Source of the DNA: Dipteris shenzhenensis
Taxonomy: Eukaryota
Assembly (NCBI GenBank): GCA_047967505.1
Contig: CM106538.1
Reading direction: 5' to 3' (one strand)
Length of the DNA: 64,000 nucleotides
Shown here piece by piece: positions 997-51,937 of the stretch. Numbering within the stretch: position 1 is the first letter of the stretch; each line of letters starts with the position of its first letter. Under the pieces are notes generated by a model. It was not told the origin of the DNA. It was given only the letters and a program-made list of their open reading frames with translations, and did no database searches. The position numbers were made by a program, and so were the translations under genes.

Positions 997-3900
997 GTAC
1001 CACCACGTCAACTTGAAGGAGCCACACTCTCTAGCATCCTAAGTTGCCCTGTGTCAATTCCCATCGGAATCCTCCTATGGAATTGTCCCAATCTATGGGA
1101 GAGTTTCAAAGGATGGATTGAACTCACAAATCCCCCTCCACCTATGAACGACATCGAGGATATCACTGTGCGGATGGGTGAGAGAGATGACATATGCAAC
1201 ATTACTATGCCTTTGATCCACAAGCCATATAATGAAGTCAAAGCCATAGTGGATGGTGGAGCAGGTGTAAATGTCCTATCAAAGGAGTTCTATGAAGAAT
1301 GGGGTCTCCCACCAATGCAAAAGGCTAATTTTAACATACACCTTGCCAATGATTCCCGGGCTAAACCCTTGGGAATAGTGAATGTTGTGTCCACAAAGAT
1401 CGCAAGAGTCTACTTTTCCTTTCAATTCAAAATCTTGGATCTCCCCAAAAAATCCTATCAAATCTTACTGGGACGTCCTTGGTTACAAGAAGCATCAGTC
1501 CTCCATGACTGGGGAATTGATAGACTAACAATCCAGAATCGCGACATTGCAGTCAGGGTGAATGTGGGGACAGGAGCTATTAAACCAATTGTGCCTAGAG
1601 CATTGGATGACACATCTTCAACAACAATCTCAAGCAAATCAGCTTTCTTGCAATAGCATGCCATAGCAGGTGACTCATAAAGCAATGCCAATAACTGGAT
1701 ACAAACATTGGCAACCATCCACAACTGACATTCATTAGATCCCATCTTCTCACAGATAGATGCTTAGTGCTACAGGTAGATCCTCCACTCCCACATGAAG
1801 AACTAATCGATCTAGAGATGCCATTCTTTATGGCTAAACTCGAGTGGGATAATGAACCTGAAGAAGATACCCATACCAATGATGACTCAGATTTTCCTTG
1901 GGACCTTGAAACAAATGTTGAGAATGCTAAAATTGAAGGTCAAATCTTTGATAATGACTTAGACATTCTGCATGCCCTAATGGCAGTCGAGCTCCCAAAA
2001 GTTAAACCTCCAAAGTTGAATAATAGCAAAAGATCCCACAAGAAAGCTGGAGGAAATCGCAAAAAAGCCAAGGCCGCGAGCACTTCAATGAATTCGAACA
2101 AGTCCAATCAAGGATCATCGAATTGTACCTTGCAAAGTTAGCTCCCTCAAAATCAGAACCACTGCCTCTTGAATGGTCCCTTGAGGGACTGGAAGGAGTA
2201 TGCGCAGCAAATGAACCCTTGGCAACACCTTACCAGTGGAAAAGTTACCCCACAGTTCCCAACGTAAGAAGTTTTGAAAGTATAAGCCACATATGCAAAT
2301 GAAGCTCAATCAAGAGACTTCAGAAAAAGAAAGTCAAAATGAGCCTAACAAATTGGTAAATGAAACGATGCAACCCAGTACACATGGCATATGTCAGGCT
2401 AGTTCAACACCATCAAAGGTCAATCTTCGAGAAGTGCCGGAATACTTCAAGAATTACACTAGTGGTAGTGCACCAATAGCAATGCCAAGACCACTAAGAG
2501 AATCTGAAGTTCAAGAAACTGATAGCATTGGAGAAACTCCAATCTATGAGGGACTGGCAAAAACACGCACAATAAACCTCGCCCTTGAAGGGGAGGAAGA
2601 AAAACTGGTTTTCATTGGGAAACAACTTCGACAAGAAGATGAAACCAAACTCAAAGCACTCCTAATGGAATACCATGACTACCTTGCATGGTCATAGAAA
2701 GAGATGAAAGGAATTTCACCAAAAGTGGCAGTACACACAATACCTATAAGGGAAGGTGCTCACCCTAAGGTATGTGGACCTTATCGCACAAATCCTAAAT
2801 ATGGCACCATGGTTTATGACGAGCTGGAAAAACTCCTAGATGTCGGATTCATCCACGAGATAGAGCACATTGATTGGGTTTCACCCATTGTCATTGTGCC
2901 TAAATGCAACAAGAAGCTCAAAATATGCATAAACTTACAAAATATGAATGCTGCCACAATTAGGGATCACTATCCCCTACCTTTAACAAAAATACTGTCG
3001 GAAAAGTTGGCAACTTAAAAAATATATAGATTCTTGGATGGCTTCAGTGGCTATAACCAAGTGCAAATCGCTCCTACAGACCAATCAAAGACAACATTTC
3101 TATAGAATGGGGTATTTTTACAAATAGAGTCATGCCATTTGGCCTTTGTAATGCCCCGGCCACATTCCAGCGAGTCATGTTCATAGCTTTCAAGTCATTT
3201 TTGAATAAGTTTTTACAGGTGTTCTTGGATGATTTTTGCATCCATTCAAACAAACAAGACCACTTCAAATGTCTTGAAGCAGCACTAATCAAATGCAGGG
3301 AGTATGGCATTTCCCTAAATCCAACAAAATGCCAGTTCATGGTCACCCACGGAGTTGTTTTGGGACACATCGTCTCTCAACATGGGATTGCAGCTGACAT
3401 GGATAAAATCAAAATCATCATGGAATTGCCTCCCTACAAATTCCAAAGGTGTACAGGTCTTTATGGGACATGCTGGCGATTATAGAAGATTTATATTGTG
3501 GTATGCCATGATAGCTAGACCACTTTACAAATTATTAGTGGATTTCTTATGGATCGAAGAGTGCGACCAAGCCTTTGAGCTTCTAAAGTGGCGCCTAATC
3601 ATAGCTCCCATCCTTATATCTCCCAATTGGGATATTGATTTTCATGTTCATACTGATGGATCCAAGTATGCAATTGGGAGTGTGCTTTATCAACCTGGTG
3701 AACATAAGAAAGACTACCCATTCTACTTTGCCAGTCGACAACTCAATGATGCAGAGATCAACTATACCACCATAGAAAGAGAAGCCCTAGCAATGGTGTA
3801 TAGTGTCAAGAAATTTTGGCACTATCTACTGGCAAATGATTTTGTCTTCTACACCGACCATCAAGCATTGCTTTATCTTGTGAATCGTCCTTGTACAATA

Positions 3901-5330
3901 GGAAGAATAACCAAATGGCTCCTCTTGCTTCAAGAATTCAACTTCAAAATAGTGGTCCGCAAAGGTGCCCAACACTACATTACTGATCACATGTCTCATG
4001 TCAAGTCGAGAGAAGAAGCCACTAGAGTAGAAGATGACTTACTAGATGCCACACTATTTCAAATAGATGCTGTTCCAGAGTGGTGTGGAGATATCATTGG
4101 GTACTTGATGGTAGGAAGACCACCCCCTGAAATGAGAGCAGTAGATGCTAGAAAATTGATTCTAAAGGCTGCACCCTATCAACTCATTGTAGGACAACTG
4201 TATAAGATGGGCAAGGATCATATTTAAGAAGATGTGTAACGCCTCATGAGATCATGCCAATCCTGAGTGAAGTCCATGAAGGCATTGTAGGAGGACACTT
4301 CCAAGGGGAAGCCACAGCAAGAAAAGTTCTCCTCACAGGCTACTGGTGGCCAACGCTATGGGCAGATGCCTATGAATATGTAAAAGGTCGTGATGTATGC
4401 TAATAGACTACTAAACCACAACACAAAGACTTCAATCCCCTAACAATAGTTGTTGCACAAAAACCACTTGAAAAATGGAGGATTGACTATGTGGGTCCCA
4501 TACATCCAGCAGCAAAAGGAACACAAGCATGCTACATCATTGTGGCCATTGATTACTTTACAAAATGGGCTGAAGCTAAAGCAGTCAGAAAGGCAGATGC
4601 TAAAAGCATAGCAAGATTCTTATATGAAAATGTGATCACCTGATTCAGATGCCCCATTGAAATTGTGTCAGATAGAGGCACACATTTTGTCAATGAGGTA
4701 ATCCAAGAACTCTTGTCTCATTTCATGGTAATCAATACAGAAAGCACACCCTACTATCTCCAAGGGAATGGACAGGCTGAATCCACCAACAAAATAATAT
4801 GCATTATCCTCACCAAGGTAGTAGAACCATAGCATTCTGATTGGGCAGAGAAACTGAATGCAGCCTTATGGGCATTCAGAACCACATTCAAGGTCAGCAC
4901 AAGGAACACACCTTTTCAATTGGTGTATGGCCTTGAAGCTATGGTCCCACTCGAATTTGTAATACCAAGCCTATGCATATCAGTATAGGAATGCATGGGA
5001 GACCATGAATCCTTGCAAGAAAGGCTCAATTAGTTGAGGAAGCATACAAAGACAAGATTAGTCGCCTACCATGCCATGACAATAGAAAAATGTGGAAGAA
5101 AGGCATGGTTTGATATAAATTTGAAAGCTAAAGACATTAAGGAAGGCGACTTAGTCCTGTTATACAATGCCAAAGTACACAAGGGGAAACTAAAGTATCT
5201 AGGTCAAGGACCCTACCGAGTACGAAAGATGAATCCCATCAAAGCTTTGCTGCTAGAAACATTGGATGGAGTCCAATTCAACACAATAATAAAGGGGAGC
5301 TGATTGAAGCGCTACTACAACAACATGTAA
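997..5330 (+). pseudogene. Gypsy pol (protease-RT-RNase H-integrase), many stops and frameshifts
   Basis: IVDGGAGVN protease; MPFGLCNAPATFQ and FLDD (RT); TDGS..IG, NY..EREALA, TDH (RNase H); GPY motif in the integrase C-terminus. Confidence 0.95.
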
Positions 5331-5522
5331 GCCATCCTCGACAAAAACAAAGATTTGGGAAACCAAGTCTTCCTTAGGATTAGATTGTATCATGAGCACT
5401 CACTTGCATATGTACGTCTTCGCAAATATAGGTAGCATCAATCAATTTTAAGCTAGGGCTCAGAAGTGATGCCTGAGTTCTAGCTGCCCTATGAAAACCC
5501 CAGTAATAAAAAAAGCATATAG

Positions 5523-5554
5523 CATTAGGAAAAAAGGGAGCTCATTTTGGGGCC
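5523..5554 (+). repeat. Left TIR CATTAGGAAAAAAGGGAGCTCATTTTGGGGCC
   Basis: Reverse complement of 12820-12851 with 2 mismatches. Confidence 0.92.
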
Positions 5555-6013
5555 TTTTACGGTTTGGAAAAATAAGCTCTCAACCAATCAATAGAAGGCC
5601 AACGTAACGTTGAAAATTCACGAAAATAAGAGAAAATAGAAAAAAGAAACAATACTTTATGTAAGTACAAGCGTGCTACATTAATGAGGAGATTGGTTTT
5701 TTATTCGTAGAAGATCTTTGGACAAGAAGATAGAATCTAAACTGACATTTTATCTGACAAGATCCTTCCCGCTTCCACCTTCCTTTGAATTTTCAAATAT
5801 TGTGCCGCCTTTCGTGCGAAAGGTCTACCATTCTACACCATTGCCTCATTGTGCAACTGCCTTCCTTTTCCAAAACTGCTCCCTTGATCCTGTTTGGTGT
5901 AGAGTAAGATGTTTCTCGTCAACTGTCTGTTTGCCCACTTTCTCTTTCTTGAAACTTCAAATTGTTATCTTAGTTACATTACTTTGCTATTCTTACAGAT
6001 TCAGAAAATCTCC

Positions 6014-7453
6014 ATGGTGAACCAAAACCACGGCCGTTCTTGTGCAAGACGCTCTGTGGATGATAATGCTACGAAGGCAGAATTATACCAAACATCCTTA
6101 CCCCGTCGACCTGCTTCTTCTATTTCGTCGGTAGAGAATTCAAGTACAGTCAAAACAGAAGGAACTTGGGAAAGGTTTAGTGTTTCGAAAGGAGCATGGG
6201 TGCTCATGCAACCTAGCAAAAGAAAAAGACCCCAGACAAAAAACATTTTCTTGGCATCGTGGAAGGGAAGAGTACGAGATTTTAAAATCACCAAAGGGAA
6301 GATATCCGTGAAAGAAGTTTTGATTCAGCACGTGTACATGCATAAAGAACTTGTCTTGCGAGACTATCCAAAAAATCTTCCGCAACACAGGCCTAATTGT
6401 ATATTTTTCTATTGTGGTTTTTTCCTTCATGAGGTGTATGGATTTTTAAGATGAAGCTTTCTCTCTTAACTTATTGACATTCTTGTGTTGTTTTATTTCA
6501 GATTTATATCCTTCATCGTATGAGACATGGCAAAACATCGATTGTATTTTGGGATTTATAGATGTTCTGCATGGATCGATAGGAGAACAACAATACCAAG
6601 GTCGATGTGCAACAGAGCTAGCTCAATCGGGTATATTTTTTACTGATCATTTTTATCAGTTGCTGGACAAAGCTAACACACATGGTGTATTAATAAAACA
6701 AGACCTTCCGGCATGGAATTCGGTGGATTGGCCTCACCCACATTCTAGTGTTACAGAGGCATATAGGGCGAAGCTTTTTACAGAAGTACAGAAAGCTCTG
6801 AGGCCCAATATTGCCACTAGGATAGTAAAAATTTCTTTGTGCATGCCTCTCACAGTTTTTGTAGACTTGTTTAATACCTTTCCAGTAAAGGTTTCAAAAA
6901 CAATGCTCACAGTTAAAGCAACAAATTCGGCATGCATGCCACAATTTTTGGATAAAGGTTGGGATAAGAAGACATGTAGTTCAGTGTTTTGTGAGGTGGT
7001 CCAACCTTCTATGCAACTGAAGTACATGGTTGCATCACAAAATCTTATTTTCTCTTTTTATTACAAGCGCAGTCGAATGCTAGGTTCAAAGCTTGTCCCA
7101 ATGGACCAAGATGAAGAGTCGTTTGGTGCACAAAATAAACTTATTGATATTGATGTTCTTGAGAATGGTGATGTGGTAGCCAGTATCTCGTTAAGAGAAT
7201 GTTGCTCCCTAGCTCAATTACGCAGTGACATTCTGTTTGAGACTGAAGGTTCTATCTCAAACGACTTTTTATTTATCTACAAGAACAGAAAGGTACACCA
7301 TCTGATTTATCCTAGTCTCTATAAGCATTGCTATTAGTTTAATTTACCACTCTAATTCATATTGCTTTTTTGCAGTTACTCAGAAGAAGAGAGAGCTCAG
7401 TTAAATGCAAAGACATAGAAAATTTTAAAATTGAGATCACACATACTCCATAA
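6014..7453 (+). CDS. Spliced ~417-aa protein: N-terminal BAH-like domain, unknown middle domain, C-terminal ubiquitin-like (beta-grasp) domain
   Basis: Exons 6014-6398, 6502-7292 and 7376-7453 are joined by GT-AG introns that keep frame with no stop. BAH-like pattern: WVLM..WKGRV..VLIQHVYMHKEL..PNYLYPSSYETWQNIDCILGFIDVL. Ubl-like pattern: SLAQLRSDI..DFLFIYKNRKL..RESSVKCKDI. Domain names are from pattern recognition only. Confidence 0.7.
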
Positions 7454-7537
7454 AGAAAGGTTTTGTATTCAATCAAGTAAGATTTTGTACAGAATTGTTT
7501 AGCTGAATCTGTAGAACATATTTCTAACATCCATTTT

Positions 7538-9632
7538 CTATTTATGTACAGTTTCATCCAGAGGCTGCTCTACATTTTCTGGAGGATCTTCTCTCTGCTG
7601 CTCCATCCTGTCCGTGCTTCATCCTGTCTCCTCCACTGCCCCAGAAGCCTCTCTTTGCTGCTTCTCCACCTTCTCCTCAACATCAACAGCAGGTCTTTGC
7701 TCCTGTGTCTGCTCCTCCTCAGCACTCTGTGATTGCTCCTGTGGCTTCTGGTCCTCAACATCAGGTGCTTCATATGTGGGATCAAGGTGTATGACACCTT
7801 CTTGTACTTTAGAGCTTTCACCCAGCTCCACAGTAGCTGCTACAATAGGTTTGGGGGAGGCATAGCTCAAAAACCTCAAAATTGTATGAGCTCTAAAATT
7901 ATGTACATAGTTGGGGCTGAAGCTATCCTCTTTCATCTGCAATGGCAGAGGATAATTTAGAACACTTTGTATCATTATGAATTATATTCAAGCTAAATGA
8001 AAAGTATTTTTCCTTACCAGATCTGGCTGTTCCTTTTCAAAGTAGCTTGAAAGTATATATTTTGCATTGATCAGCACCCTCCATCCACAACTACTTGAAT
8101 CATTTTGTTGTGGTGTCTGTACAGTTAGAAAAAAATGTTAGAAACTGTGAGCATCAGCACAAAACAAAATTATTCAATAAGTTCAAAGACATAGCATTTA
8201 ATAGACCTTTTACCTGTAGACTTAATGGCTCTATTGAATCCAACAGAGAGACATTTGGAGGACAATGATCCAATGCATCTAATAGCCTTCTAATACAACT
8301 GCAATATGTATAATTTAGTTAGTATGGTATCAAAATAATGAAGTTTTGAGTTCAGAAAGCACACACAGTAGTTACAATTTCAGCTCTCTGTGTGTGTTTT
8401 TTAGAGAGTTGAATAGAAAGCACTGCTTCTGCTAGATGTCAATAGACACAAAACTCCAGTGGTCACTGCATAAGGAAAAAAGCATAAGCAAATGAAAGGC
8501 TACAAGAGTTCCCAATATTAAAGAAGAATCTTAAAAGAAGTAGTCACCCACATACCTGCTATGATATGGAAGTAGCAAAATGTCAATTACTTCAAAATTG
8601 CAGTGTTTGAACCAGCTGGAAATACTCATGGGAGTCTCTTTTGCATCTCTTAATCTAGAAGAAATGGCTGGATCAACAATATGGACTGTATGTTGTACAG
8701 AGGGATGAAGCCAGCTTCTCATCATGCTGCATAGGATCAGAACATAATTAGGGTAGGTTATAAAAGAGTTACAAGGAGGATTGATTTGCAAAAAATGTAA
8801 AATCTAAAGACACTTACTAGAGCATTGCAAGAATGATAGTATCTGAGCAATACTCATTCTTGTTAGCCAATGCTGCTAAGCATTGTTTTGTCAAATCAAA
8901 ATCATTGACTGAAACTTCATCCTCAATATGTACAACTACATCAGGGCCCAGCTCCTTCAACCTTCTATGTATGTGTAGCTCCTTCTTTCCAGTTTCCACA
9001 TCTATCACAGATTTTGTTTCTTTTACTTGCTGCTTCAGTGAGTCCTCATAAGCAGCCTTCCCTCTGGTGTTCTTTGAGTGTGTTACCTCAACAACCTTTA
9101 CCTCATCAACCTTGACCTTCCTTGTAGGTGGAATTAGCAATATATCTCTCATTTTGATGTCCTGCCATTCCACAGGATGAACCAGCTTGTCATATCTCCA
9201 TCTCACTCTGGACAAAGTGTTGAAATCTTTGGCCATCAAAGTCACCCTGTGAGCATGGGCTGCTACAAGCATTGCATCCTCAAAATATTTCTCCAGGTAA
9301 TCCTCTGCCATTTCCTGCAAGGAAAGAATGGCAGTTCTATTCCACCTGAACCCAAGGTTCCAACTGTCACAAATTTCTCTCACCAGTCTTTGAAAGGGTG
9401 CTTTGGGTATTGCAAAACCTATGGCTTTCTGTTGCCTCCTTATTTCCCTAAGCACACCTGCACCCTTATTCAATCTTTTGGCCTTTTGCTTGAGCAAGCT
9501 CATTGGCTTACCCTTCTTGCCATGTGAAGCTCTTCCCTTTGGAGGAACACTAAACTTCTTGGAACCTGTCCCAGCTGCTGTTGCTGCTGGTCCTTTGCCA
9601 ACTTGCCTTGCAGTTGATTTGGTTCTTGCCAT
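7538..9632 (-). pseudogene. Histone H3-like domain fused to a Ulp1/C48 SUMO protease plus acidic tail (6 coding exons; premature stop in exon 3)
   Basis: Exons 9632-8818, 8726-8556, 8465-8376, 8298-8214, 8116-8018 and 7936-7619 (or 7538). All five introns are GT-AG, 77-97 nt, and phase-compatible. H3 motifs: ARTKSTAR, LREIRRQQK, PFQRLVREI, LQEMAEDYL, HAHRVTLMAKD. Ulp1 motifs: DILLLPYH, DHWSFVSID, FNSL, PQQNDSSSCG. In-frame TAG at 8434-8432. Confidence 0.88.
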
Positions 9633-9689
9633 CACTCTGAAAAACTGCATACAAAGGATTGGAAAGAGATCAAAGACATGAAGAACATG

Positions 9690-10600
9690 TTTTTACAAAG
9701 AAAAGGCAATCACAGGGGTGGTAGAAGACAAATAGAGAAATTTGCAATAAAATGCGATATGAGCAGTTTGGAATTTCAAACAGGTCCACATCGCATTTTG
9801 CTGCAAATTTTTTAAATGAAATGCTGGTGCACTCCTACAGTGATTTCTATGTTTCTCCAACCAAATATAGTATGAATGGAGGTCATTCAAGAAGATCACA
9901 TGCAAATATCACACTTGAAGATCTGCATTCCTTCAGTGATTTCTCTGTCTTGGTTTGAGCCTATGCATTTCCATACAGGATGTAATTTTTCTATTTTAGG
10001 CAAGAAGATTGCAGAGGCTAAGGGGAGTCACAAAACCAGACATGTTCTCATTAAGAAAAGGCAATTACAGAGGTGGAAGAAGCCAAATAGACAAATTTAC
10101 AATAAAATGCGATATGAGCAGTTTGGAATTTCAAACAGGTCCACATCGCATTTTGCTGCAAATTTCTGAAATGACATGCTGGTGAACTTCTACAGTGATT
10201 TCTTTGTCTCTCCAGCCAAATACAGTATGAATGGAGTTTATGCAAGAAGACTACAGCTATGGAAGTCAAAAAACCAGAACATGTTCTCACAAAGAGAAGG
10301 CAATCACAGGGGTGGAAGAAGCCAAATAGAGAAATTTGCAATAAAATGCGATATGAGCAGTTTGGAATTTCAAACAGGTCCACATCGCATTTTGCTGCAA
10401 ATTTTCTAAATGACATGCTGGTGCACTCCTACAGTGATTTCTATGTTTCTCCAACCAAATACAGTATGAATGGAGGTTAGGCAAGAAGATCACATGCAAA
10501 TATCACACTTGAAGATCTGCTTTCCTACAGTGATTTCTTTGTCTTGGTTTGAGTCTATGCATTTCCATACAGTATGTTTTTTTTCTATTTTAGGCAAAAA
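9690..10600. repeat. Tandem ~240-355 bp repeats, each containing a ~72-bp imperfect palindrome (3 copies)
   Basis: AATTTGCAATAAAATGCGATATGAGCAGTTTGGAATTTCAAACAGGTCCACATCGCATTTTGCTGCAAATT at ~9739, ~10094 and ~10333. Confidence 0.9.
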
Positions 10601-10830
10601 GATTGCAGAGACTAAGGGGAGAACCCATTGTTCCTGACCTGGAGTCTATCTGTGGATGTGCTGTGCTGCTGAGGAGTAATCTGTGCTGAGGATGATTCTG
10701 TGCTGCTGGACAAGATGCTGATGCTGCAGAGTATGGAGGTAGGGAGGCAAGAGGGCAGAGACTGGAGGGCAAGAGTTCTAAAACAGGATACCACAAAGAA
10801 GTGCAAAATGAATTAAAGAATCACTAAATC

Positions 10831-10910
10831 CCACACGTGTGGAATCTAGTCGTTTTTCACACGTGTGGATGGGACCCAGATCTCTTGGAGTTTGAAATCT
10901 GGCACGTGTG
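10831..10910. promoter_or_regulatory. Cluster of three G-boxes (CACGTG) and a GGGACCCA site; candidate (bidirectional) promoter
   Basis: CCACACGTGTGG at 10831-10842, CACACGTGTG at 10858-10867, GGCACGTGTG at 10901-10910, upstream of the H3-Ulp1 gene. Confidence 0.45.
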
Positions 10911-11329
10911 AAAGTACACTTTATTCCTTGGAACTTGTGCCATTCATTATTTCATCATGAATACCACAACCACTTTTCCCTCCCCTGGATTCCAATCTCT
11001 CATCCCTGCCACGACTCTCTCCTGATCCTTTCTCTCTGATTCTTTCCTGCCCAGCACACTCCATCCAGATTGCAGCCTGCCTGAAGACAGTACTGCCAGA
11101 TCTCCAGGTTACCTAGAGTGCAAGGTTCAAGCTAGAGAAAGAGCAGGAGATTTACCAGTGCAACTCAATCAGCATGGAAAAGGAAAAAAAAGGTCAGAGT
11201 TCTAGTTTGGTTTCAATGTTTTTCAACATTTATTTCTTCCATCCATTGGATTTTTTATGTCCCAATGTCTTCACTCAGCTCCATCCTTCTTCCACAATGT
11301 GGTAAATCACCCAAAAATTAGATTGTAGG

Positions 11330-11791
11330 TTGATATGAACAGAAACAAGAAATTTGCAACAAAATGCGAGGAGAGTGGTTTGGAATTCTCTAAACAGCCC
11401 ATATCGCATTTTGCTGCAAATTCCTGTTGTGGACTCCTTGCTCATGAAAATTTTCATTCATTCCATTTTTTCTCTTGCATATGAGAGCATAGTGTCCAGG
11501 AATCACTGAAATGAAGCAAGTGCTTGATTTGACATGCACATGAACAGAACTTGAGAATTTGCAACAAAATGCGAGGAGAGTGGTTTATAGTTCTCTAAAC
11601 AGCCCATATCGCATTTTGCTGCAAATTCCTGTTGTTGACACATTCCTCATGAATAGTATCACTCATTCCATTATTTCTCTTGCATGTGAGATCATAGTGT
11701 CCAGGAATCACTGAGATGAACCAAGTTCTTGATTTGACATGCACATGACCAGAATTTGAGAATTTGCAACAAAATGCGAGGAGAGTGGTTT
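11330..11791. repeat. Second array (~205-bp unit) with a variant of the same palindrome; third copy truncated
   Basis: AATTTGCAACAAAATGCGAGGAGAGTGGTTT...ATATCGCATTTTGCTGCAAATT at ~11351 and ~11556; partial copy at 11761-11791. Confidence 0.88.
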
Positions 11792-12450
11792 GACTATATT
11801 ATTCAGCACCTCCATTCTTATTTTGCGACAATCAACGAAATAGATATAGTCTGGAAGAGAGCCTTTTTGAGTATACAAAATGATAAATTTCAATCTAACC
11901 TTGCTTCCTGAATTCGTCGCTTGCATCCACCAGTCCCAGCCTTCAAATTTGCAATGTTTTTAATCTTCCTGCTACGTTGTCTGTCTCCAAGCACGGTTCT
12001 CTTCTTTCTTGCTCTTGTCAATTCTTTTTTACTCTTTGAATGCTCCTCGATTTCATTCTGCAACTGCTGCTCCAATTTTGCACGAATGGCTATCTCCTCC
12101 ATCTTGGCCCCCTTTTCTTGTAGGTACATCATTTTATACGTTTCCGCAAATGCAGATTGCGCTGAAATATAACCAAGAAGTCCATTTTGTCCATCGCCGG
12201 CAAACCTCAGTAATGTGGTGGGATTGACAAATGGAGGTGTAGAGTTTTTTACTTGACATTTTGGATATATGCTTCCGTCGCACCATAAGTCAATATGTTG
12301 AAGCCCTTCTCTTCTCATATTTTCCCGCTGTTGAGCATTCAGCACCGTATCCTTTCGTCTTTTTTGTGCTGGAGCATATTGTTCTTCCAAGTCGATGTGA
12401 AGATGGTGTAATCGCTTCTTCTCAGATAGTGACTCACTAGTATCGGCCAT
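11792..12450 (-). pseudogene. Truncated ORF starting inside the right TIR end (coiled-coil/basic); possibly the N-terminus of the lost transposase
   Basis: 186-aa ORF (12450-11890). About 100 bp past its stop the sequence abuts a truncated repeat unit at 11791, which looks like a deletion junction. No catalytic motif seen. Confidence 0.45.
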
Positions 12451-12819
12451 TTTTTGTGCTCCTCAGGTTGCGAAGTTTGTTTTTCAATCTCATAGTCGTT
12501 TTGTAACATGAATCGTGGAAGTGTGGCGGTATCCATGTGAATATTTTGAAAACTTGCAATCACTAAGTTCAGTGATGGACTCTTAATGAAAGACCTGCAC
12601 ACGTCGGCCAAAGAGATGCGGAATCTTTGGTAAACAAAAAAAAATCTAAGAGGATATTTAATACAAAATCGTGTTAGTCAGACAAAATATTATCTTATTC
12701 CTTTTTGAATTGACAGTTCTGTAGTCCTTACTGACAAATCTGAGCCACGTTTCCGTATTTTACTATTTTTGAGGTCTTTTAGGAGAGAAATAAATCAAAA
12801 AATAGTGAATTTCTTACAG

Positions 12820-12851
12820 GGCCCCAAAATGAGTTCCCTTTTTCCCTAATG
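12820..12851 (-). repeat. Right TIR
   Basis: GGCCCCAAAATGAGTTCCCTTTTTCCCTAATG, reverse complement of the left TIR. Confidence 0.92.
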
Positions 12852-13212
12852 TTAGTCCATACCTAGCTACTAGGTCATGTGCACTCATACGCTTTCTCTT
12901 AGACACATAGATGATTGCATGAATAATTATACCACACACTTTCATTTCACACTCTCAAAGCATGTATAAAAATAAGATTTCTCACACACACACAAAAAGG
13001 TCATACCAACATGCCAACACCACATGCACATGGATGCAGGTTTAGAGATGCCATCACTAAAGAGGATGCACAAAAAGAGCCCACTGCCTCAACCATGAGA
13101 CCCCCTCTAGAGTTCACATCAATCTACATCCTCTCAACCATGGCGACCATAGCCATTCATGGTCCAACGCGATAGCTCCGAAGAGGATTTAGTGGATGAC
13201 CAAGAAGAACAA

Positions 13213-14726
13213 ATGCCACCCTAGTCACCAACGGCCTACACAGCCATTGACGGGGCCTAGTCATTGGAACTTGTTTGGCCACCCACATCGACTTATGCTC
13301 TTTCCTAGGAAGCAACATCTTACTTAGAGCAAAGGGGTCTAGCCAGTTTGCATGAGAGCCTAAAATCCTTGGAGGACAGTTCTACAATGACCACATACAT
13401 CAAGGACTTTTTCCATTCTTACCACTCCAACAATGCAAAGGTTGGCAATACGGTACAATCACTGTACATCAGAGCCCACTAAATATTATCCTCGATAGTA
13501 CAGTCATTGAAAGGGATTTCTCACTGCCAACATAAGGTGCCAAATACCCTAATCGGCCTGCTGATGCAAAGTTTATCAAAGTACAGTGTCTCCTCACCAA
13601 GGGCACACTAATCCATAGAGACGGCATATTGCTTTGCACAATCCTTGACCATCGCCTCACGGAAGTAAGACAATTCCTATCCACAATCCTGGGGGTTAAG
13701 TGTGGCAAGAATCGATCCCTTCCACTCCGCACATTTGTTTTGTTGAGTAGGAAGCTAAAACAAGACTGGGTCCAGCACTTAGTCATCTTCTTTACAAAGA
13801 AACTAGATGGTTCTTTAGGCCAAAAATGTAAAATTCCACACTTATTGGCTATAATCATAAAAAAAGAACCACAAGAAAGAGAAATGACTCTGCCCCATGA
13901 CTCTAGCCCAGTCACCAAAACCAATGAGGAGTTGGACATACCTTTCTCACCAGTATGGGAGCCGTCACCAACTTCTCCTACTATAACATTGATAGGTGCA
14001 GTTGCCTTAGAAGAAATACCTATTCTGGAGGCTAGGATTGCAGAATTGCCTCAAGAGATGCTACAACTCGGTGCACAATTGCAACCAATATATCTCTAAC
14101 AACAGCAGCAACCAGAGCTCGAGGCAAGATTGGCACTAGAACCTGAGGAAAGATTGGCACCAAAGCCTGAGGCTACATTAGTACTAGAACCACCCATCGA
14201 CGCCATGCCAGTAGATGAGCCACAAGGGGAGCTAGTGCCAGATCAACAGTATGACTATTGTACACAAGGGACTAAAATACCATTGGAACAACCTCCCCCA
14301 AGTACTATAGAATCATCGGGCTGGCTACATGGGCACCATTTGTATCAGCAGTATCGCTAGACCTCATCACTGTCTGTCATTCTCCAACATCAAGCTAGCC
14401 AGATGATCCAAATGTTAGAACTATTCACTAGCTTGGCCAAGGAGGAATATGCAAGACAATTGGAAAGACAGACTGCAATAGAAATTGAAGACCAATTCCA
14501 AGCAATCGCCATAGAGGTCAAGGCAGTTTGGCACAGATAGATGAGAAGGAGGTAGAAGAAGTGCGCATGAACCAAGCTCTCCAAGCTCAAGAGAAGGCAG
14601 TGAGGGATGTGACCTCCAACCTCCACCAAAGTCAAACACGGCTGACAATAGTAGTACAAGCAATGGCAATCCTACATACCTACTATAACTCCTTGACATT
14701 TGCACATGCTCAACAGATGGAGGTAG
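13213..14726 (+). pseudogene. Gypsy copy 1 extra 3' ORF (5' part), decayed
   Basis: Homologous to 52470-53973 (LPLRTFVLLSRKLKQDWVQH). Confidence 0.85.
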
Positions 14727-14983
14727 TGACAAAATATGAAGAGGGGAGAGGAGAAGAGTGGAGATGAGGAGAAAGGGCACAGCTAGAGAGCACACCACAA
14801 ATGACTAACTGTACACTAGATTTAGTTGAAAAAATAGAATATATACAAACCCTTTTAGGGTTAGGGCTAGGGGATCTAACCCTTTCCTTCATAGCACTCT
14901 ATAAGGTTAGTGCTATGCACATATGATCACGTGATGGTGCTATGCACACATGATCACATGATGTTGAGCGTGAACTCTCAACA
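14727..14983 (-). repeat. Copia A 3' LTR
   Basis: TG..CA; near-identical to 25448-25696 and 29637-29893. Confidence 0.93.
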
Positions 14984-15587: not shown

Positions 15588-15885
15588 TGTTGAGATATCA
15601 AGCTCTACCCCCGATATATCTCCTGGATGACTATCATTTATGTCACCGCCTATGTTAGTTGTACTCGTGGTGTAGTTAGACTACCACGTATGTTTTTGGT
15701 TTGGGTTCACATATGAACCACGGATTCTAGGGTTTGACATATAGGGTATTTCCCTCTTCTATTGTATTGTTGTTGTGTGCAAAAGTGAAGAATGGCTTCA
15801 CCCTCCAACCTTGTGTCCTCTCTCTTTTGTGTGTTGTGAAGAAAGCTGAACTTGAGTCTCCTATCTCTCTCCCTTATTCTTTACA
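15588..15885 (+). repeat. Copia B 5' LTR
   Basis: TG..CA, direct repeat of 20686-20983. Confidence 0.97.
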
Positions 15886-16372
15886 TGGTATTAGAGCCTT
15901 GTTCGTGGTAAGGAGCTCAAGAAAGCAAGCCAAGTTTGTGGTGTCCTGGTAAGAGGACCAGTGTTGCTTTCCTATTTCGTGTTTGGGAGCAAATCTCTGC
16001 AGGTAGCACAGCCAGAAGTGCAGGAGTGCACTGTTTCTGATTTGAGGCCGTTTCGGGCCCCGTTTTGAAGGCGGAAGTTCTTCGCAGGCACTCAGAAAAA
16101 GGCCCTGTTTTTCGCTGTGCGCGGCTAGTCGGTGAAAAGGTGCCACAAAAATTGCATTGTATGCCTGCGTGCAGAGATATTGGGAGTTGCAGATTCATGC
16201 TTGTTGCCTGTTGATGCAAAATCGTCACTAGGAAGTGACTGTGTGGTGAAATACCACTTTCGTCAGTGTTGCAGATCTGCCCCTGTGAGGCTTTTTGCAG
16301 AAGTTTTGCTATTTGCCCTTGTGAGGCATTTGCTGTGTTTACAGGTTGCTGTTGCAATTCGTGATTTGTAAA

Positions 16373-19300
16373 ATGTCTGAGAATCTGTCTACCATTGTCA
16401 GTGAGAAGCTTGACAAGAACAACTTCCAAGCATGGAAGTTCAGGATGACAAACTTCCTTATGGGAAAGGGAGTTTGGGAGTACATCAGTGGTGAAACTGC
16501 AGAACCAGTTTTGGGTGCTGCTCCCACTCCTGCTGAATTGAAGGCCTTTAAAGAATGGCATGAAAAAGCCAGAAAATGCCTGTATTGGCTGTCTATTAGC
16601 ATTTCAGATTCTATGATTGTGCATATACAGGATGTAGAGACGCCTAAGGAGGCATGGGATACATTGGTGAAGCTGTATAGCACAAATACCAAAGCACGAA
16701 AGATGCAGCTAAAGCAGGAGTTGCACAATGTGCAAAGGAAAAATCTGAATATAAATGAGTATTCCTTGAAAGTGAAAGGCCTTGCAGATTCTCTTGCCTC
16801 CATTGGAGCACCTGTTGATGATGAGGACTTAGTGTCCGTGACCTTGAATGGTCTTGGGAAAGATTATGCACAGTTTCGGACATCCATTGGAGTCCGTGAA
16901 ACATTTCTTGATTTTCAGGAACTTATTGCTCTCTTGCTGAGTGAAGAGCAAAGGAATGGTGGTTCAGCCACCTCAACTTCTCAAGAGACTACTTTCTACT
17001 CGAATACAGGTAGAGGCAGAGGTAGAGGAAGAGGCCGTTTTGGTGGCCGTGCAGGAAATCAGAACCAACAGCAACAACAGGAAAACCAGTCCTATGGAGG
17101 AGGACGTGGTAGTTCTAGAGGCAGGGGGAGCCAAAGAGGCCGTGGTTCATGGCAAAGGAACCAGCAAGTAAATAGTAGCACAGAATGCTATTATTGTGGA
17201 AAGCCTGGACACAAGAAGAATACATGCTATAAAAAGCAGAATGACATCAAAAGTGGGAAGTTGCAGCAAAGCAACTATGCATCATCAAGTGGGCATGGTG
17301 ACGACAGAAATGAGCACCTTTTTGTGATGCAGCATATGGTTAACTCCATGTCAGGAGATGCTGCAGCTTGCAATGATGTTTGGTATGTTGATTCAGGTGC
17401 CTCTAACCACATGACCAGTCATGGTGAGTGGTTTCATGATGTTAGAAATTTGGATAAGCCAGGTTATGTTGAAACAGGTTATGATACTGTGTACCCAATT
17501 ACGCAGGTTGGTAAAGTGCCATTGGCTATGCAGGATGGCAAAACGAAGTACTTGCCAGATGTACTTCATGTTCCAAAAATCACTAAGAACCTGGTTTCAG
17601 TTGGCCAGATGGTTGAGCAAGGTCTGCAGGTTAGATTTAATCCTGATGGATGCTTTGTTGAGGACTTGAAAAATAAGTGCCGCTTGGTTGCGAAAGGCAA
17701 CAAAAATGGCAGAATGTTCACCTTGGATGTTGATATGCCTGAGGTGAAAGCTGCTATGTTTGCGCATGGGAGAGGTGTCATTGCAGATATTGAGATATGG
17801 CACAAGCGCATTGGGCACGTGAATATACAAAGGCTGAAATCTATGCAAACGAAAAACATTGTTGCAGGTTTGCCTAAATTCAGAGTTGAGGGAATGCAAA
17901 AGGTATGTGAAGCATGCCAAATGGGTAAGCAGGCCAGACATGCATTTCCCAAAAATGCTAAGGTGAGCAGAAGACCTTTGGAAGTGATCCATTTAGATGT
18001 TTGGACAACCAAAGCTGCTTCGATTTGTGGATGCCATTATTATGTGACGTTTATTGATGACTACACTAGGAAGGTGTGGATTTATTTTATGAAGCACAAA
18101 AGTGAAGTGTTCAGCCATTTCAAGGCTTTTAAGGCCATGGTTGAAAAAGAGAAAGGTGTGCATATTAAAGTGCTAAGATCTGATGGAGGGGGAGAGTACT
18201 TTTCAGAAGAATTTTGTGAATATCTGAAAGAACAGGGAATTCAAAGGAAGTACTCATGCAGGTCTACCCCTCAGCAGAATGGGGTTGCAGAAAGGAAGAA
18301 CAGGCATATTACAGAAGTAGGACGGGTGATCCTAAATGAGAAAAACATGCCTGATTATTTTTGGGCTGAAGCAGTAGCAACTGCTGTTTATATTATGAAC
18401 AGAACTCCCACTGCAGCTGTCCATGGCATGACGCCTGAAGAAATGTATACAGGCCAAAAACCAGATATTTCTCACTTGAAGGTATTTGGTTGCATAGCTT
18501 ATGTTCATGTTCCTGATGAGAAGAGAACAAAGCTGGATCCAAAGGCAGAAAAATGCATCTTTATTGGATATGCTCTGCACCAGAAAGGGTATCGCTATTA
18601 TAACCCTTCCACCCGCAAAATGCAAGTGAGCAGAGATGTTGTTTTTGATGAAATGAGCAGCTGGTATGCACCAACTGTTATGGTAGGAGATGCAGATGCA
18701 GGAAATGGGAATGCTGCAATAAATGCAGAGCAACAATCTCAAGCCTTGAGTGGACCCAGAGAGTCCTCTACTAGTGGATCTAATGCATGGACAGGGACAT
18801 TGAGATATAGTGAATCGTCACATGGCAGCCCTGATAGTGTTGTGCAGGTATCACATAAGGGAAAAGAAAAAGTAGACCATGCTCCAGTGTTTGATGTGTT
18901 TTCTGGTAGCTCTCATGTTGATGGAAAGTCAAGCGGCTCTGAAATGAGCCTTGATGAGGAACTTGGGATTCCTTCTGTTGTTACACCTGGTGCAAGGAAA
19001 AGCAGGCATGATTTAAAGACTCCTACAACTGATCCAGTTGTACGGAGGTCCACTCGTATTAAGTATCCAGTTGACAGGCTGAGATATGATGGGTATACAG
19101 CACATCACTATGCTTATATGGTCAAGGTTCTAGAGGAGCCAGAGCCCACATGTTTTGAGGATGCAGCAGGGCATAAAAATTGGGAAGCAGCTATGGATGA
19201 AGAGATGGCTGCCTTGGATGCAAACCACACTTGGGATTTGATGCCTTTGCCTCATGATAAGAAGGCTATTGGCTGCAAGTGGGTTTACAAAGTAAAGCAC

Positions 19301-20728
19301 AATGCTGATGGGTCAGTTAGCAGGTACAAGGCAAGATTGGTTGCCAAAGGTTTTGCACAGACATATGGAATTGACTATGAGGAAACTTTCAGCCCAGTTG
19401 CAAGGATGGCAACCGTGAGAGCAGTAATTGCTATGGCTGCTGCAAAGGGATGGTCTTTGCATCAGATGGATGTGAAAAATGCCTTCTTGCATGGTGATTT
19501 GCAGGAAGAGGTTTATATGATGCAGCCAGAAGGTTATGAGGATAATTCACACCCCGATTTTGTATGTAGGTTGCGCAAAGCCTTGTATGGCTTAAAACAG
19601 GCGCCGAGGGCATGGTCAGACAAGATAGGGCAATATCTTGTCACTATTGGATTTCAGATTTCCAATTCAGATTTTTCACTTTATGTGAAAAGGACAAACA
19701 GAGGGATTGTGCTTATAGTCATCTATGTTGATGACTTGATTATTACAGGTGATAGTGATGCAGACATTAATGAAGTGAAGCTACTGTTGAAGCATAAATT
19801 TGAGATGAAGGATTTGGGAGAGCTGCGTTACTTCTTGGGCATTGAGGTTATTAGATCCCCGAGTGGGATATGGCTGTTGCAAAGGCAATACGGTTTGGAC
19901 ATGCTGTCCAAATATGGGATGACAGGCTGTAAGCCTATTTCTGTTCCATTGGAGCAGAATGTGAAGCTCAATGCAGAGACAGGTGAGCTTCTTGAAGATA
20001 TTACTATGTACAGGCGCATAGTAGGTAGCTTGATTTACATGACTATAACCAGACCAGATTTGAGCTATGCTGTGGGGCTGGTAAGTCAGTTTATGCAGGC
20101 ACCGAGGAAGCCACATTTGGATGCGGCTAGGCACATACTGCGGTATGTGAAGTCCACATTGCATTATGGACTATTTTATGAAGCTGGGTGTGCATTACAG
20201 GTACATGGATACACAGATGCTGATTGGGTTGGTAGTGTCTCAGACAGGAGATCTACTAGTGGTTTTATGTTTTCCCTTGGGAGTGGTGCCATCAGTTGGA
20301 GTAGCAAGAAGCAGCCAACAGTTGCCTTGTCGAGCACAGAGGCTGAGTACAGGGGTGCAGCAATGGCTGCATGTGAGGTAGCTTGGTTACGGAAGCTACT
20401 TGCAGATATGGGACAGTCAATTCATGCAGCAGTTGTCATTCATTGTGACAACATTAGCAGCATCATGCTTGCTAATAACCCAGTTTATCATGCTAGAACG
20501 AAGCACATTGAGGTGCATTATCACTTTGTGAGAGAGAAGGTTCTAGCTGGTGAGATTAATCTTGTCTATGTCAGCACTGAGGAGCAGGTGGCTGATATTT
20601 TTACGAAGGCATTGGGTACCGAGAAGCTTCGCAGATTTAGGAGCTTGCTTGGTGTACGTGAGATGGATTTGAGCTTGAGGGGGAGTGTTGAGATATCAAG
20701 CTCTACCCCCGATATATCTCCTGGATGA
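16373..20728 (+). CDS. Copia gag-pol polyprotein (gag, CCHC, protease, integrase, RT, RNase H), uninterrupted, 1451 aa
   Basis: Single ORF from ATG 16373 with CYYCGKPGHKKNTC, VDSGASNHM, FIDDY/RSDGGGEY/NGVAERKN, YVDDL, DADW, HCDN. Confidence 0.97.
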   Translation: MSENLSTIVSEKLDKNNFQAWKFRMTNFLMGKGVWEYISGETAEPVLGAAPTPAELKAFKEWHEKARKCLYWLSISISDSMIVHIQDVETPKEAWDTLVKLYSTNTKARKMQLKQELHNVQRKNLNINEYSLKVKGLADSLASIGAPVDDEDLVSVTLNGLGKDYAQFRTSIGVRETFLDFQELIALLLSEEQRNGGSATSTSQETTFYSNTGRGRGRGRGRFGGRAGNQNQQQQQENQSYGGGRGSSRGRGSQRGRGSWQRNQQVNSSTECYYCGKPGHKKNTCYKKQNDIKSGKLQQSNYASSSGHGDDRNEHLFVMQHMVNSMSGDAAACNDVWYVDSGASNHMTSHGEWFHDVRNLDKPGYVETGYDTVYPITQVGKVPLAMQDGKTKYLPDVLHVPKITKNLVSVGQMVEQGLQVRFNPDGCFVEDLKNKCRLVAKGNKNGRMFTLDVDMPEVKAAMFAHGRGVIADIEIWHKRIGHVNIQRLKSMQTKNIVAGLPKFRVEGMQKVCEACQMGKQARHAFPKNAKVSRRPLEVIHLDVWTTKAASICGCHYYVTFIDDYTRKVWIYFMKHKSEVFSHFKAFKAMVEKEKGVHIKVLRSDGGGEYFSEEFCEYLKEQGIQRKYSCRSTPQQNGVAERKNRHITEVGRVILNEKNMPDYFWAEAVATAVYIMNRTPTAAVHGMTPEEMYTGQKPDISHLKVFGCIAYVHVPDEKRTKLDPKAEKCIFIGYALHQKGYRYYNPSTRKMQVSRDVVFDEMSSWYAPTVMVGDADAGNGNAAINAEQQSQALSGPRESSTSGSNAWTGTLRYSESSHGSPDSVVQVSHKGKEKVDHAPVFDVFSGSSHVDGKSSGSEMSLDEELGIPSVVTPGARKSRHDLKTPTTDPVVRRSTRIKYPVDRLRYDGYTAHHYAYMVKVLEEPEPTCFEDAAGHKNWEAAMDEEMAALDANHTWDLMPLPHDKKAIGCKWVYKVKHNADGSVSRYKARLVAKGFAQTYGIDYEETFSPVARMATVRAVIAMAAAKGWSLHQMDVKNAFLHGDLQEEVYMMQPEGYEDNSHPDFVCRLRKALYGLKQAPRAWSDKIGQYLVTIGFQISNSDFSLYVKRTNRGIVLIVIYVDDLIITGDSDADINEVKLLLKHKFEMKDLGELRYFLGIEVIRSPSGIWLLQRQYGLDMLSKYGMTGCKPISVPLEQNVKLNAETGELLEDITMYRRIVGSLIYMTITRPDLSYAVGLVSQFMQAPRKPHLDAARHILRYVKSTLHYGLFYEAGCALQVHGYTDADWVGSVSDRRSTSGFMFSLGSGAISWSSKKQPTVALSSTEAEYRGAAMAACEVAWLRKLLADMGQSIHAAVVIHCDNISSIMLANNPVYHARTKHIEVHYHFVREKVLAGEINLVYVSTEEQVADIFTKALGTEKLRRFRSLLGVREMDLSLRGSVEISSSTPDISPG

Positions 20729-20983
20729 CTATCATTTATGTCACCGCCTATGTTAGTTGTACTCGTGGTGTAGTTAGACTACCACGTATGTTTTTGGTTT
20801 GGGTTCACATATGAACCACGTATTCTAGGGTTTGACATATAGGGTATTTCCCTCTTCTACTGTATTGTTGTTGTGTGCAAAAGTGAAGAATGGCTTCACC
20901 CTCCAACCTTGTGTCCTCTCTCTTTTGTGTGTTGTGAAGAAAGCTGAACTTGAGTCTCCTATCTCTCTCCCTTATTCTTTACA
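20686..20983 (+). repeat. Copia B 3' LTR
   Basis: Direct repeat followed by TSD TCCCT. Confidence 0.97.
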
Positions 20984-33454: not shown

Positions 33455-33920
33455 TGTTAGCCCTCTCTACTCTGAAGACTAACTCGAAACGCACTACTGC
33501 GACAGATTTACATGCGTAATCGAACTTCAGAACTGCGTATGAAAATTCATAGAGTAGAACAGTGATCGACAGAATCATTCATGATAAAACAATAAGATAG
33601 ATGCAATAGAATATCTGTATTACACTTCTCCGAGCAGTACAACACCGTACTCTCTGATACATAACAATGTTCCTCTTCTGATCACACTGATCCTTGCTCC
33701 GATCCTCATCAATGAGCCCCCTGAATGATCGCTCTCTTCTCTTTTATCTAACCGGCACACATAACTCCTTCACGGTTGCCGTGACGGTTGCCGTGACTCG
33801 TCAGTTCTCCGCCTGGTCCTAGAACTTCCGTCTTTTCATATCTCACTATAAACTAGATACAACGTATTAATGATAATAATCTAAGGACTCCCCCCCTAGT
33901 TCCTGCTTTTGCCCTTAACA
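33455..33920 (-). repeat. 3' LTR of the gag-protease element
   Basis: TG..CA, direct repeat of 37311-37776. Confidence 0.95.
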
Positions 33921-37204: not shown

Positions 37205-37310
37205 GCGCTAGTCTACGCACCGAGGAATCAGAGTATTACAGATGGGGAGCATCCAACCTCTCCGGGGTATCCACCGCGACGAACATGGAAATCTTCCGTG
37301 GTCGCCAAAG

Positions 37311-37776
37311 TGTTAGCCCTCTCTACTCTGAAGACTAACTCGAAACGCACTACTGCGACAGATTTACATGCGTAATCGAACTTCAGAACTGCGTATGAAA
37401 ATTCATAGAGTAGAACAGTGATCGACAGAATCATTCATGATAAAACAATAAGATAGATGCAATAGAATATCTGTATTACACTTCTCCGAGCAGTACAACA
37501 CCGTACTCTCTAATACATAACAATGTTCCTCTTCTGATCACACTGATCCTTGCTCCGATCCTCATCAATGAGCCCCCTGAATGATCGCTCTCTTCTCTTT
37601 TATCTAACCGGCACACATAACTCCTTGACGGTTGCCGTGATGGTTGCCGTGACTCGTCAGTTCTCCGCCTGGTCCTAGAACTTCCGTCTTTTCATATCTC
37701 ACTATAAACTAGATACAACGTATTAATGATAATAATCTAAGGACTCCCCCCCTAGTTCCTGCTTTTGCCCTTAACA
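37311..37776 (-). repeat. 5' LTR of the gag-protease element
   Basis: Direct repeat; adjacent to the PBS. Confidence 0.95.
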
Positions 37777-51600: not shown

Positions 51601-51937
51601 TACAGAGACAAGACTAGTCGCTTATCATGCCATGACAACAGAAAAACGTCGACAAAAGGCATGGTTTGACAGGAATCTGAAAGCTAAAGACATCAAGGAA
51701 GGCGACTTAGTCCTGTTATACAATGCCAAAGTACACAAGGGAAAACTGAAGTATCTAGGTCAAGGACCCTACCGAGTACGAAAGATGAATCCCATCGGAG
51801 CTGTGCTACTAGAAACACTAGATGGAGTCCAATTCAACACAATAATAAACGGGAGCCGACTGAAGCACTACTACATCAACACGCGAGCCATCCCCGACAA
51901 AAACGAAGATTTGGGAAACCAAGTCTTCCTTAGTTAG
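45682..51937 (+). pseudogene. Gypsy gag-pol with several premature stops and a frameshift
   Basis: LPKYNGKGDP gag; four CCHC-like knuckles; IVDGGAGVN; LDGFSGYNQ and FLDD; RNase H; HHCC zinc finger; DYVG/SDRG integrase; GPY. Confidence 0.95.

Follow-up and report, generated by a model that had tools for sequence, protein, structure and literature searches.

A gene of a fern-type transposon predicted to join a histone H3 fold to an Ulp1/SENP-like protease domain

What is a histone H3-like reading frame doing inside a mobile element? The question is raised by the minus strand of a 64,000-nucleotide stretch of the Dipteris shenzhenensis genome (GenBank assembly GCA_047967505.1, contig CM106538.1; this whole stretch is called the window below), where the initial annotation had placed a transposon-borne histone at 9198-9632 that keeps K4 and lacks the lysines used for silencing. 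Judging from sequence comparison, the 277-codon open reading frame (ORF) that holds this histone is the first exon of a histone H3-Ulp1/SENP-like protease gene of a fern-type transposon. The encoded protein is predicted to have four parts, namely an H3-type tail, a complete H3 fold, a conserved linker with a long helix, and a Peptidase_C48 domain, and we are highly confident of this architecture and of its transposon setting. The noteworthy feature of the locus is this histone-protease fusion, which the initial annotation missed, and not the K9-to-Q change on which it had focused.

The observed H3-like reading frame is real and far above chance. In the ORF listing and translation of the window, minus-strand positions 8817-9650 form one open frame of 277 codons. 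Translation from an in-frame ATG further upstream, at 9650, would lengthen the protein by six residues (MQFFRV); because relatives begin MARTK, the ATG at 9632, the seventh codon of the frame, is the likelier start, and the N-terminal reading from it is MARTKSTARQVGKGP. The H3-like part is encoded by 9632-9198 (minus strand), the first 435 nt of exon 1; the interval first assigned to the histone holds for this part, but the frame continues to 8818 and then, via introns, to 7619. The gene is not that of a small stand-alone histone, as 127 further codons follow in exon 1 and five more exons come after it. Residues 44-145 of the window protein match Pfam Histone (PF00125) at 93.3 bits (E 1.7e-26, cutoff 26.4), and its fold carries the motifs APFQRLVREI, GFRWN, and AEDYL, with no gap between helix 1 and helix 2 when aligned by BLASTP to P0075, a canonical H3. 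Translation and alignment thus bear out PFQRL, FRW, AEDYL, and the lack of a loop-1 extension, as first described. Across the fold, identity to canonical H3 is about 50%.

Structural comparisons agree with this assignment. A phmmer search of the PDB returned 176 distinct sequences at E<=0.001, and every one of the best 60 is H3 or an H3/CENP-A chimera; H3.1/CENP-A-CATD chimeras take the first two places (84.5 and 82.9 bits, with plain H3 at about 78-80), and pure CENP-A is not among these 60. The mixture of canonical traits with a few CENH3-like ones that had been noted is borne out by the chimeras at the head of the list. AlphaFold modeling of the exon-1 protein (34 relatives used, mean pLDDT 70.5) followed by Foldseek gave H3 chains in 50 of the 50 matches listed, at 46-52% identity, although E values reached only about 2e-3 and the rmsd was high for a lone histone chain. 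An H3-type histone fold is carried by a mobile element.

Exon 1 directly meets a GTAAGT donor, and of the 21 aligned ORFs that extend as far as the exon-1 end, 16 terminate no more than one residue away from a common column; the relatives share this ORF end because of the donor, a pattern that fits one conserved intron. Downstream of exon 1, tblastn with three relatives (P0015, P0036, and P0038) found a minus-strand block at 8743-8474, a His box near 8460, and a Gln/Cys box, TPQQNDSSSCGWRVLINAKYIL, at 8119-8051 (E 7e-5 with P0015, 5e-5 with P0036, and 3e-4 with P0038). With splice sites read by homology, the gene extends from 9632 to 7619 in six exons of about 525 codons, and all borders are GT..AG. 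The exons of this model, which was built by homology only, are as follows.

8818 to 9632, minus strand: exon 1 (ORF, Pfam Histone, alignments, and AlphaFold model; GTAAGT donor directly after, at 8817), encoding the tail, histone fold, conserved linker, long helix, beta hairpin, and first protease-domain helices.
8556 to 8726, minus strand: exon 2, middle of Peptidase_C48, homology-inferred (tblastn of Adiantum P0015 and P0038; AG acceptor, GTATGT donor).
8376 to 8465, minus strand: exon 3, His box (DHWSF...FNSL), aligned to the His box of P0038.
8214 to 8298, minus strand: exon 4, homology-inferred from frame and splice sites and matched by reading to P0038 residues 356-380, without an alignment score.
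8018 to 8116, minus strand: exon 5, Gln/Cys box (TPQQNDSSSCGW), from tblastn and splice sites.
7619 to 7936, minus strand: exon 6, acidic low-complexity tail to the stop codon (ORF 7619-7975, acceptor, and a weak tblastn match to the P0036 tail, E 0.13).

The protease assignment comes from the relatives. A search of 5.8 billion proteins yielded 13 relatives among 1336 candidates, the named one being from the fern Adiantum nelumboides, and a search among longer proteins gave a single match, P0015 (511 residues, Adiantum capillus-veneris). Profile searching of 1.84 billion representatives produced 16,315 matches at E<=0.001, mostly ordinary H3; about 45 of the best 150 of these extend past the histone fold, and 39 of the best 150 were retrieved as full sequences. 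Relatives are 403-511 residues long. In P0038 (403 residues, A. nelumboides), Pfam recognizes both Histone (E 2.6e-23) and Peptidase_C48 (25.6 bits, E 1.3e-5, cutoff 20.7). When the last 167 residues of this protein were compared with the PDB, 19 of the 23 sequences at E<=10 were SENP/Ulp proteases, including all of the best 16, and the best match was SENP2 (E 1.3e-3). Its N-terminal LxD..I motif and its HWS, Q, and CGW boxes align to the boxes of SENP2 and SENP8, and the AlphaFold model of P0038 is usable over the histone fold and linker. The His box (HW) is present in all four sequences that reach the region (the window, P0038, and metagenome loci L001 and L002), and the Q...CGW box in all five that do so (the window, P0015, P0036, P0038, and L001).

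Annotated relatives are uneven. P0163 (A. nelumboides, 817 aa) consists of an H3-like part, linker, and His-box part joined to a retropepsin-like segment, probably because the gene model took in part of a neighboring gypsy element, and it shows how unreliable public annotation of the H3-protease family is. P0164 is a fragment of 202 residues.

Between the histone and the protease lies a linker. After helix 3 the window frame goes on RWRYDKLVHPVEWQDIKMRDILLIPPTRK...VEVTHSKNTR, and the AlphaFold model then predicts a helix of 40 residues followed by a beta hairpin and a pair of short helices. Two linker motifs are conserved, D..KM.DILLIPP and V.V.[ED]VTH...TR. In an alignment of 34 sequences, D164 is kept in 34/34, I170 in 31/34, L171 in 33/34, and P174 in 30/34, as are H191 and T195 (32/33 each) and R196 (31/33); for the histone core, the corresponding counts are 34/34 for R135, 31/34 for T137, and 32/34 for M139. 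By these counts the linker is as constrained as the histone core. Both motifs (D-I-L-L-I-P-P and V/I-x-V/I-x-E/D-V-T) resemble SUMO-interaction motifs, the consensus of which we take to be a short V/I/L run beside acidic residues. The canonical H3 P0075 also runs on past helix 3 (...YDLLVCP...KPRDFLV), in a manner faintly like the start of the family linker (RYDKLVHP...KMRDILL), and its score with the family profile is slightly higher than that of plain H3; this likeness could be chance or intron read-through.

In a maximum-likelihood tree, 25 family rows form one side of a 100/100 branch, with 16 canonical or other H3-like rows on the other; family rows are up to 200 residues long, so that the linker contributes to this split, and the tree holds canonical H3 and unnamed H3-like sequences only, without plant CENH3. 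The A. nelumboides proteins fall into at least three subclades, a spread that would be expected if the family is old and has many copies. Members that are only 30-45% identical to each other keep open exon-1 frames, the intron position, the His, Gln, and Cys residues, and the linker residues.

The gene lies within an element bounded by terminal inverted repeats (TIRs).

5523 to 12851: TIR-bounded element of 7.3 kb that carries the H3-protease gene, inserted in a Ty3/gypsy retrotransposon copy (self-BLAST and public contigs).
5523 to 5559, plus strand: left TIR, starting CATTAGG (repeat pair search).
12815 to 12851, minus strand: right TIR (repeat pair search).

The inverted ends are 40-nt arms that are 88% complementary, with a 19-nt core that occurs twice in the window against 0.02 expected. 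In self-BLAST, the surrounding gypsy segments matched a second gypsy copy in the same order at 86-91% identity (997-5522 with 47540-52077, and 12851-14734 with 52077-53981); because this second copy is collinear but does not have the segment between 5522 and 12851, that segment is an insertion. Contigs of four public runs (X1-X4) were then compared with positions 5400-12950. In X1 an empty site is represented by a contig that joins 5510 to 12851, and ends of empty sites were also seen in X2; the empty site reads GCATATAG/TTAGTCC, and nothing but the element distinguishes the filled site from it. In contigs of X3 and X4 the match ends exactly at 5522/5523 and 12851/12852, and the flanks disagree with each other (agreement 0.55-0.63); the ends are the same and the flanks differ, and the element therefore exists at other sites. 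No target-site duplication beyond a possible single G was found when 2-, 3-, 4-, 8-, and 9-bp duplications were looked for by eye at the junctions. Insertion without a target-site duplication is unusual for cut-and-paste elements. No Pfam family scored above cutoff for the other ORFs of the element or for two extra gypsy ORFs, and no Rfam family was found in 5400-12950. The window copy looks non-autonomous, and from its sequence features we class the element as a putative DNA-type mobile element of fern-like genomes.

Further features of the element are the following.

5903 to 7337, plus strand: partner gene (ORFs 5903-6454 and 6450-7337), convergent with the H3-protease gene (conserved homologues).
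9682 to 10621: tandem repeats (period about 239 nt) that lie immediately upstream of the H3-protease gene (repeat search and self-BLAST).
11304 to 11792: another tandem array, of period 205 nt, which likewise contains the 20-nt motif (repeat search).
11890 to 12450, minus strand: 186-codon ORF near the right element end (no Pfam family above cutoff; covered by X1-X4 contigs).

Four relatives of the partner protein, 55-88% identical to it, belong to clusters of 7-47 members; the partner protein has no Pfam domain, and its 295-residue ORF gave no usable Atlas match. A GT..AG joint (7457 to 7550) in an X3 contig, in the 3' part of the partner gene, suggests that the gene is transcribed. At metagenome locus L001 a partner homologue (3658-4533, minus strand; 45% identical, E 2e-73) again lies tail-to-tail with an H3-protease gene, the H3-like part of which is only 47% identical to that of the window. 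Because both genes travel together, the H3-protease gene belongs to the element family and is not a one-off passenger; it forms a conserved, monophyletic, multi-copy family in a TIR-bounded element with a conserved partner gene. The partner is possibly the element's own mobility or DNA-binding protein.

Both tandem arrays contain a 20-nt motif, AAATTTGCAAYAAAATGCGA, that occurs 11 times, always within 9738-11779 (0 expected), and is absent from the rest of the 64-kb window. Its copies are arranged as inverted pairs with a spacing of about 33 nt, in the stretch that separates the 186-codon ORF from the H3-protease gene, and together they resemble a protein-binding array.

Two further ORFs were seen at the metagenome loci. 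At L001, an ORF with an NLI-interacting-factor (FCP1/SCP-like) phosphatase domain (2808-3368, plus strand; Pfam NIF, E 1.6e-17) sits behind an AG acceptor, between the H3-protease and partner genes, and has no counterpart in the window; it possibly represents an additional C-terminal domain, or else one more cargo gene. Locus L014 contains an H4-like ORF that was missed by the first motif scan of the fetched loci and found by a looser one.

What, then, might such a protein do? The explanation that we favor is an element gene whose H3 fold, linker, and Ulp1/SENP protease act on chromatin; as a whole we consider it reasonably probable, while the narrower proposal of a chromatin-tethered protease that serves the element, which draws on analogy, is tentative and falls somewhat short of probable. 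The histone fold would pair with H4, or would be deposited like H3, and so place the protease on chromatin, in or on nucleosomes. The tethered protease could benefit the element by cleaving SUMO, or some other ubiquitin-like modifier, off chromatin proteins in the vicinity; by analogy, that benefit would most plausibly be the opposing of silencing of the element, and the upstream arrays of the 20-nt motif could serve the element as recognition sites of its own. The HRVT loop, the helix-1 arginines, and the four-helix-bundle His, which we take to be contacts to H4, H3', and DNA, are kept in the fold, and nucleosomes tolerate C-terminal tags on H3; for these two reasons, the protein could sit in or on nucleosomes while holding its protease.

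Several observations weigh against this explanation. An in-frame TAG (8432-8434) interrupts exon 3 where the Adiantum protein has a sense codon, and the window copy could therefore make at most the histone part and half a protease. Two runs that we guessed to be RNA give no cover of 7920-11700, though the element ends and the partner gene are covered, and the relatives' contigs are unspliced, because their ORFs end at the intron. Pfam recognized no transposase among the ORFs of the element, so that an autonomous origin of the gene is at most putative. Support for the protease domain is itself uneven: P0015 scores 15.8 bits for Peptidase_C48, below the cutoff of 20.7; P0036 has no Pfam Peptidase_C48 match; a 90-residue stretch (8531-8803) that includes exon 2, scanned alone, had no Pfam match at E<=0.1; the domain of the window copy, divided among exons, was matched by tblastn only; and the AlphaFold model of the P0038 protease part is poor (pLDDT 34-44 over residues 281-403). 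Seventeen residues after the His, where we take the catalytic Asp of SENP/Ulp1 to lie, Asn is found in all four sequences (the window, P0038, L001, and L002), and HMMER alignments put A, N, or S opposite the Asp, never D; catalytic activity is accordingly uncertain, yet conservation of the Asn suggests a working His-Asn-Cys arrangement in preference to decay. Finally, the anti-silencing role is proposed by analogy alone.

Among the rival explanations, the one that fares best is that suggested by the histone tail, namely an unsilenceable H3 variant or decoy which, without K9 and K27 methylation sites, would keep the chromatin of the element free of H3K9me2 and H3K27me. The window tail is ARTKSTARQVGK; reading of the frame and a scan of the whole protein confirmed that K4 is present, that positions 9 and 10 are Q and V, and that ARKS occurs nowhere, K27 included. 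To place these residues in the family, 29 proteins with an apparent N-terminus were examined by script, and the 26 that matched an M-[AVP]-R-x-K start were counted; P0012, P0039, and P0053, with unrelated starts, were left out, and the counts are not fully independent, as P0038, P0163, and P0164 share one 90% cluster. K4 is kept in all 26 and ARTK is exact in 20; the conserved tail segment is ARTK.TAR, residues 1-8. ARKS is found in 0/26, in neither the K9 nor the K27 context, and S10 is kept in only 4/26. Position 9 is occupied by K (10 proteins), R (9), V (3), Q (2), W (1), or D (1). The absence of ARKS, the scarcity of K9 and S10, and the universal K4 would all fit a histone that escapes silencing, as would the loop-2 HRVT motif and helix-1 arginines kept in its fold. 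The picture of a histone without silencing lysines thus holds across the family as far as ARKS is concerned, but K9 itself is present in 10 of the 26.

Q9 is not conserved. The two Q9 proteins (that of the window and Adiantum P0005) lie in different subclades of the maximum-likelihood tree, with sisters that have R or K and with R in the nearest neighbors. In the X1 contig, which is near-identical to the window copy and has an in-frame 6-nt insertion behind 9586, position 9605 is changed from G to T on the plus strand (depth 19.1/19.1), turning CAA (Q) into AAA (K); the X2 contig keeps the letter of the window. The eight exon-1 variants that are visible (3 silent and 5 replacing, all in the tail) are too few for use of the dN/dS type. 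The initial annotation had read Q9 as an acetyl-mimic and had named K9 in other copies as the mark of a private mutation; other copies do have K9, position 9 varies across the family, and the acetyl-mimic reading falls with it. Q9 has no special role, and the substitution is private to a few copies. In addition, an unsilenceable H3 leaves without a role the approximately 375 residues after the fold (linker and protease domain), which are as constrained as the fold itself, and we regard this explanation as unlikely.

A decayed passenger, that is, a host gene or chance fusion in a non-autonomous element, functionless for host and element alike, is slightly harder still to credit. It would account for the premature stop in the window copy, the lack of a recognized transposase among the element ORFs, the absence of RNA-run cover over the H3-protease gene, and the uneven annotated relatives (the P0163 gypsy-protease chimera and the P0164 fragment). 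It does not sit well with members 30-45% identical that retain exon-1 frames, the intron position, the His, Gln, and Cys residues, and invariant linker residues, a pattern of conservation that would not result from decay without selection, nor with the partner gene retained beside the divergent copy at L001.

Very improbable is a CENH3-derived fold whose task would be to target the protein, or the element, to the chromatin of centromeres, since W in place of F at the RF/RW position in at least 90% of members and the H3.1 chimeras with the CENP-A targeting domain at the top of the PDB list (84.5 and 82.9 bits, against at most 80 for H3) are set against a margin of only a few bits, no pure CENP-A among the best 60 of 176, a conserved ARTK.TAR tail (ARTK exact in 20/26, K4 in 26/26), no loop-1 insertion in 33 of 34 aligned members, and a fold about 50% identical to canonical H3, a poor fit to the divergent tail without an ARTK start and the lengthened loop 1 that we presume to mark CENH3.

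We return to the explanation that we favor, an element gene whose histone fold, linker, and protease act on chromatin. Its boldest form, which we hold to be rather unlikely, is that the transposon-encoded histone is itself the enzyme: built into, or docked on, the nucleosomes of the element, it would strip SUMO-dependent silencing marks in cis, with the ARTK.TAR tail and the two SUMO-interaction-like linker motifs giving docking and the 20-nt arrays marking the sites of action. If true, such an enzyme-histone would open a new class of anti-silencing factors and be the first fusion of a histone with a protease. Should the protein enter chromatin, it would show that a mobile element, rather than recruiting an enzyme to the nucleosome, can build one into it, and the protein would offer a direct handle on SUMO-type modification in transposon silencing, in plants with giant, transposon-filled genomes.

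The window holds other repeats besides this element. An apparently intact Ty1/copia element at 15588-20984 (1451-codon gag-pol frame at 16373-20728, plus strand; 299-bp long terminal repeats [LTRs], 99.3% identical) sits within the same gypsy copy and seems to have inserted recently. At 33452-37776, direct repeats of 469 bp (99.1% identical) flank a minus-strand frame of 1102 codons that includes gag, zinc-knuckle, and aspartic-protease-like parts; this is likely a further LTR element of recent date, or else a solo internal fragment. A G-rich tandem array at 42992-44218 is satellite-like low-complexity DNA and includes a glycine-rich pseudo-ORF (43196-43573, minus strand).

Each half of the fusion has well-known counterparts. 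The histone part resembles canonical and replacement H3 in tail residues 1-8, helix N, the three helices of the fold, the lack of a loop-1 insertion, the HRVT loop-2 motif, and a His that we take to be equivalent to H113 of H3. It differs from H3 in its variable position 9, in the absence of ARKS at both sites, in the change of F to W in loop 1/strand and of K to H before RVT, and in a chain that continues for about 375 residues beyond helix 3. The protease part resembles the Ulp1/SENP proteases of SUMO and NEDD8, as Peptidase_C48 is above cutoff in P0038 and its boxes align to SENP2 and SENP8; unlike them it has Asn at His+17, and the match is weak (E about 1e-3 to 1e-5).

Among mobile elements, the nearest parallel on the protease side is found in Arabidopsis. 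The VANDAL elements, for which we presume a target duplication of about 9 bp, differ from the window element in that no Mutator-type transposase was found by Pfam among the ORFs tested here. Some of them carry VANC anti-silencing genes with a transduplicated Ulp1 domain, termed KIU (Kaonashi ULP-like), which act on short motifs in non-coding DNA and for which sequence-specific methylation loss of cognate elements has been reported (PMC13317346). As in that system, the window element carries an Ulp1 (C48) gene among its few genes, with short motifs in its non-coding DNA (PMC13317346); here, by contrast, the Ulp1 domain is fused to an H3 fold and not to a VANC domain. The KIU carriers described in the accessible part of that source are Mutator-like and are called non-TIR, whereas the window element has 40-nt TIRs and no target duplication (PMC13317346). 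Its host is also fern-like, not a eudicot, and Asn stands at the Asp position of the triad. The word histone is absent from this 2026 review (PMC13317346).

On the histone side, hAT transposons of Dothideomycete fungi (Pyrenophora and Pseudocercospora) have captured and amplified histone H3 (PMC6710886), so that in both cases an H3 coding sequence lies inside a DNA transposon. As far as the available text of that study goes, the fungal H3 is a plain copy from recent transduplication, mostly inactivated by RIP (PMC6710886); the window H3-like domain, in contrast, is old, divergent (about 50% to H3), and part of a conserved multi-domain gene, and its element has neither a hAT transposase nor an 8-bp duplication.

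A plant Ulp-class protease acting in epigenetic silencing is cited in a paper on SUMO evolution in which transposons are never mentioned (PMC11371177), and a survey of chromatin genes captured by transposons makes no mention of ulp, peptidase, or fern. No histone-Ulp1 fusion is described in the literature that was searched as full text, although supplements could list such architectures. Transposon-borne Ulp1 genes, in KIU, and H3 copies in fungal transposons are each known separately; for a conserved gene that joins the two, the literature searched offers no description.

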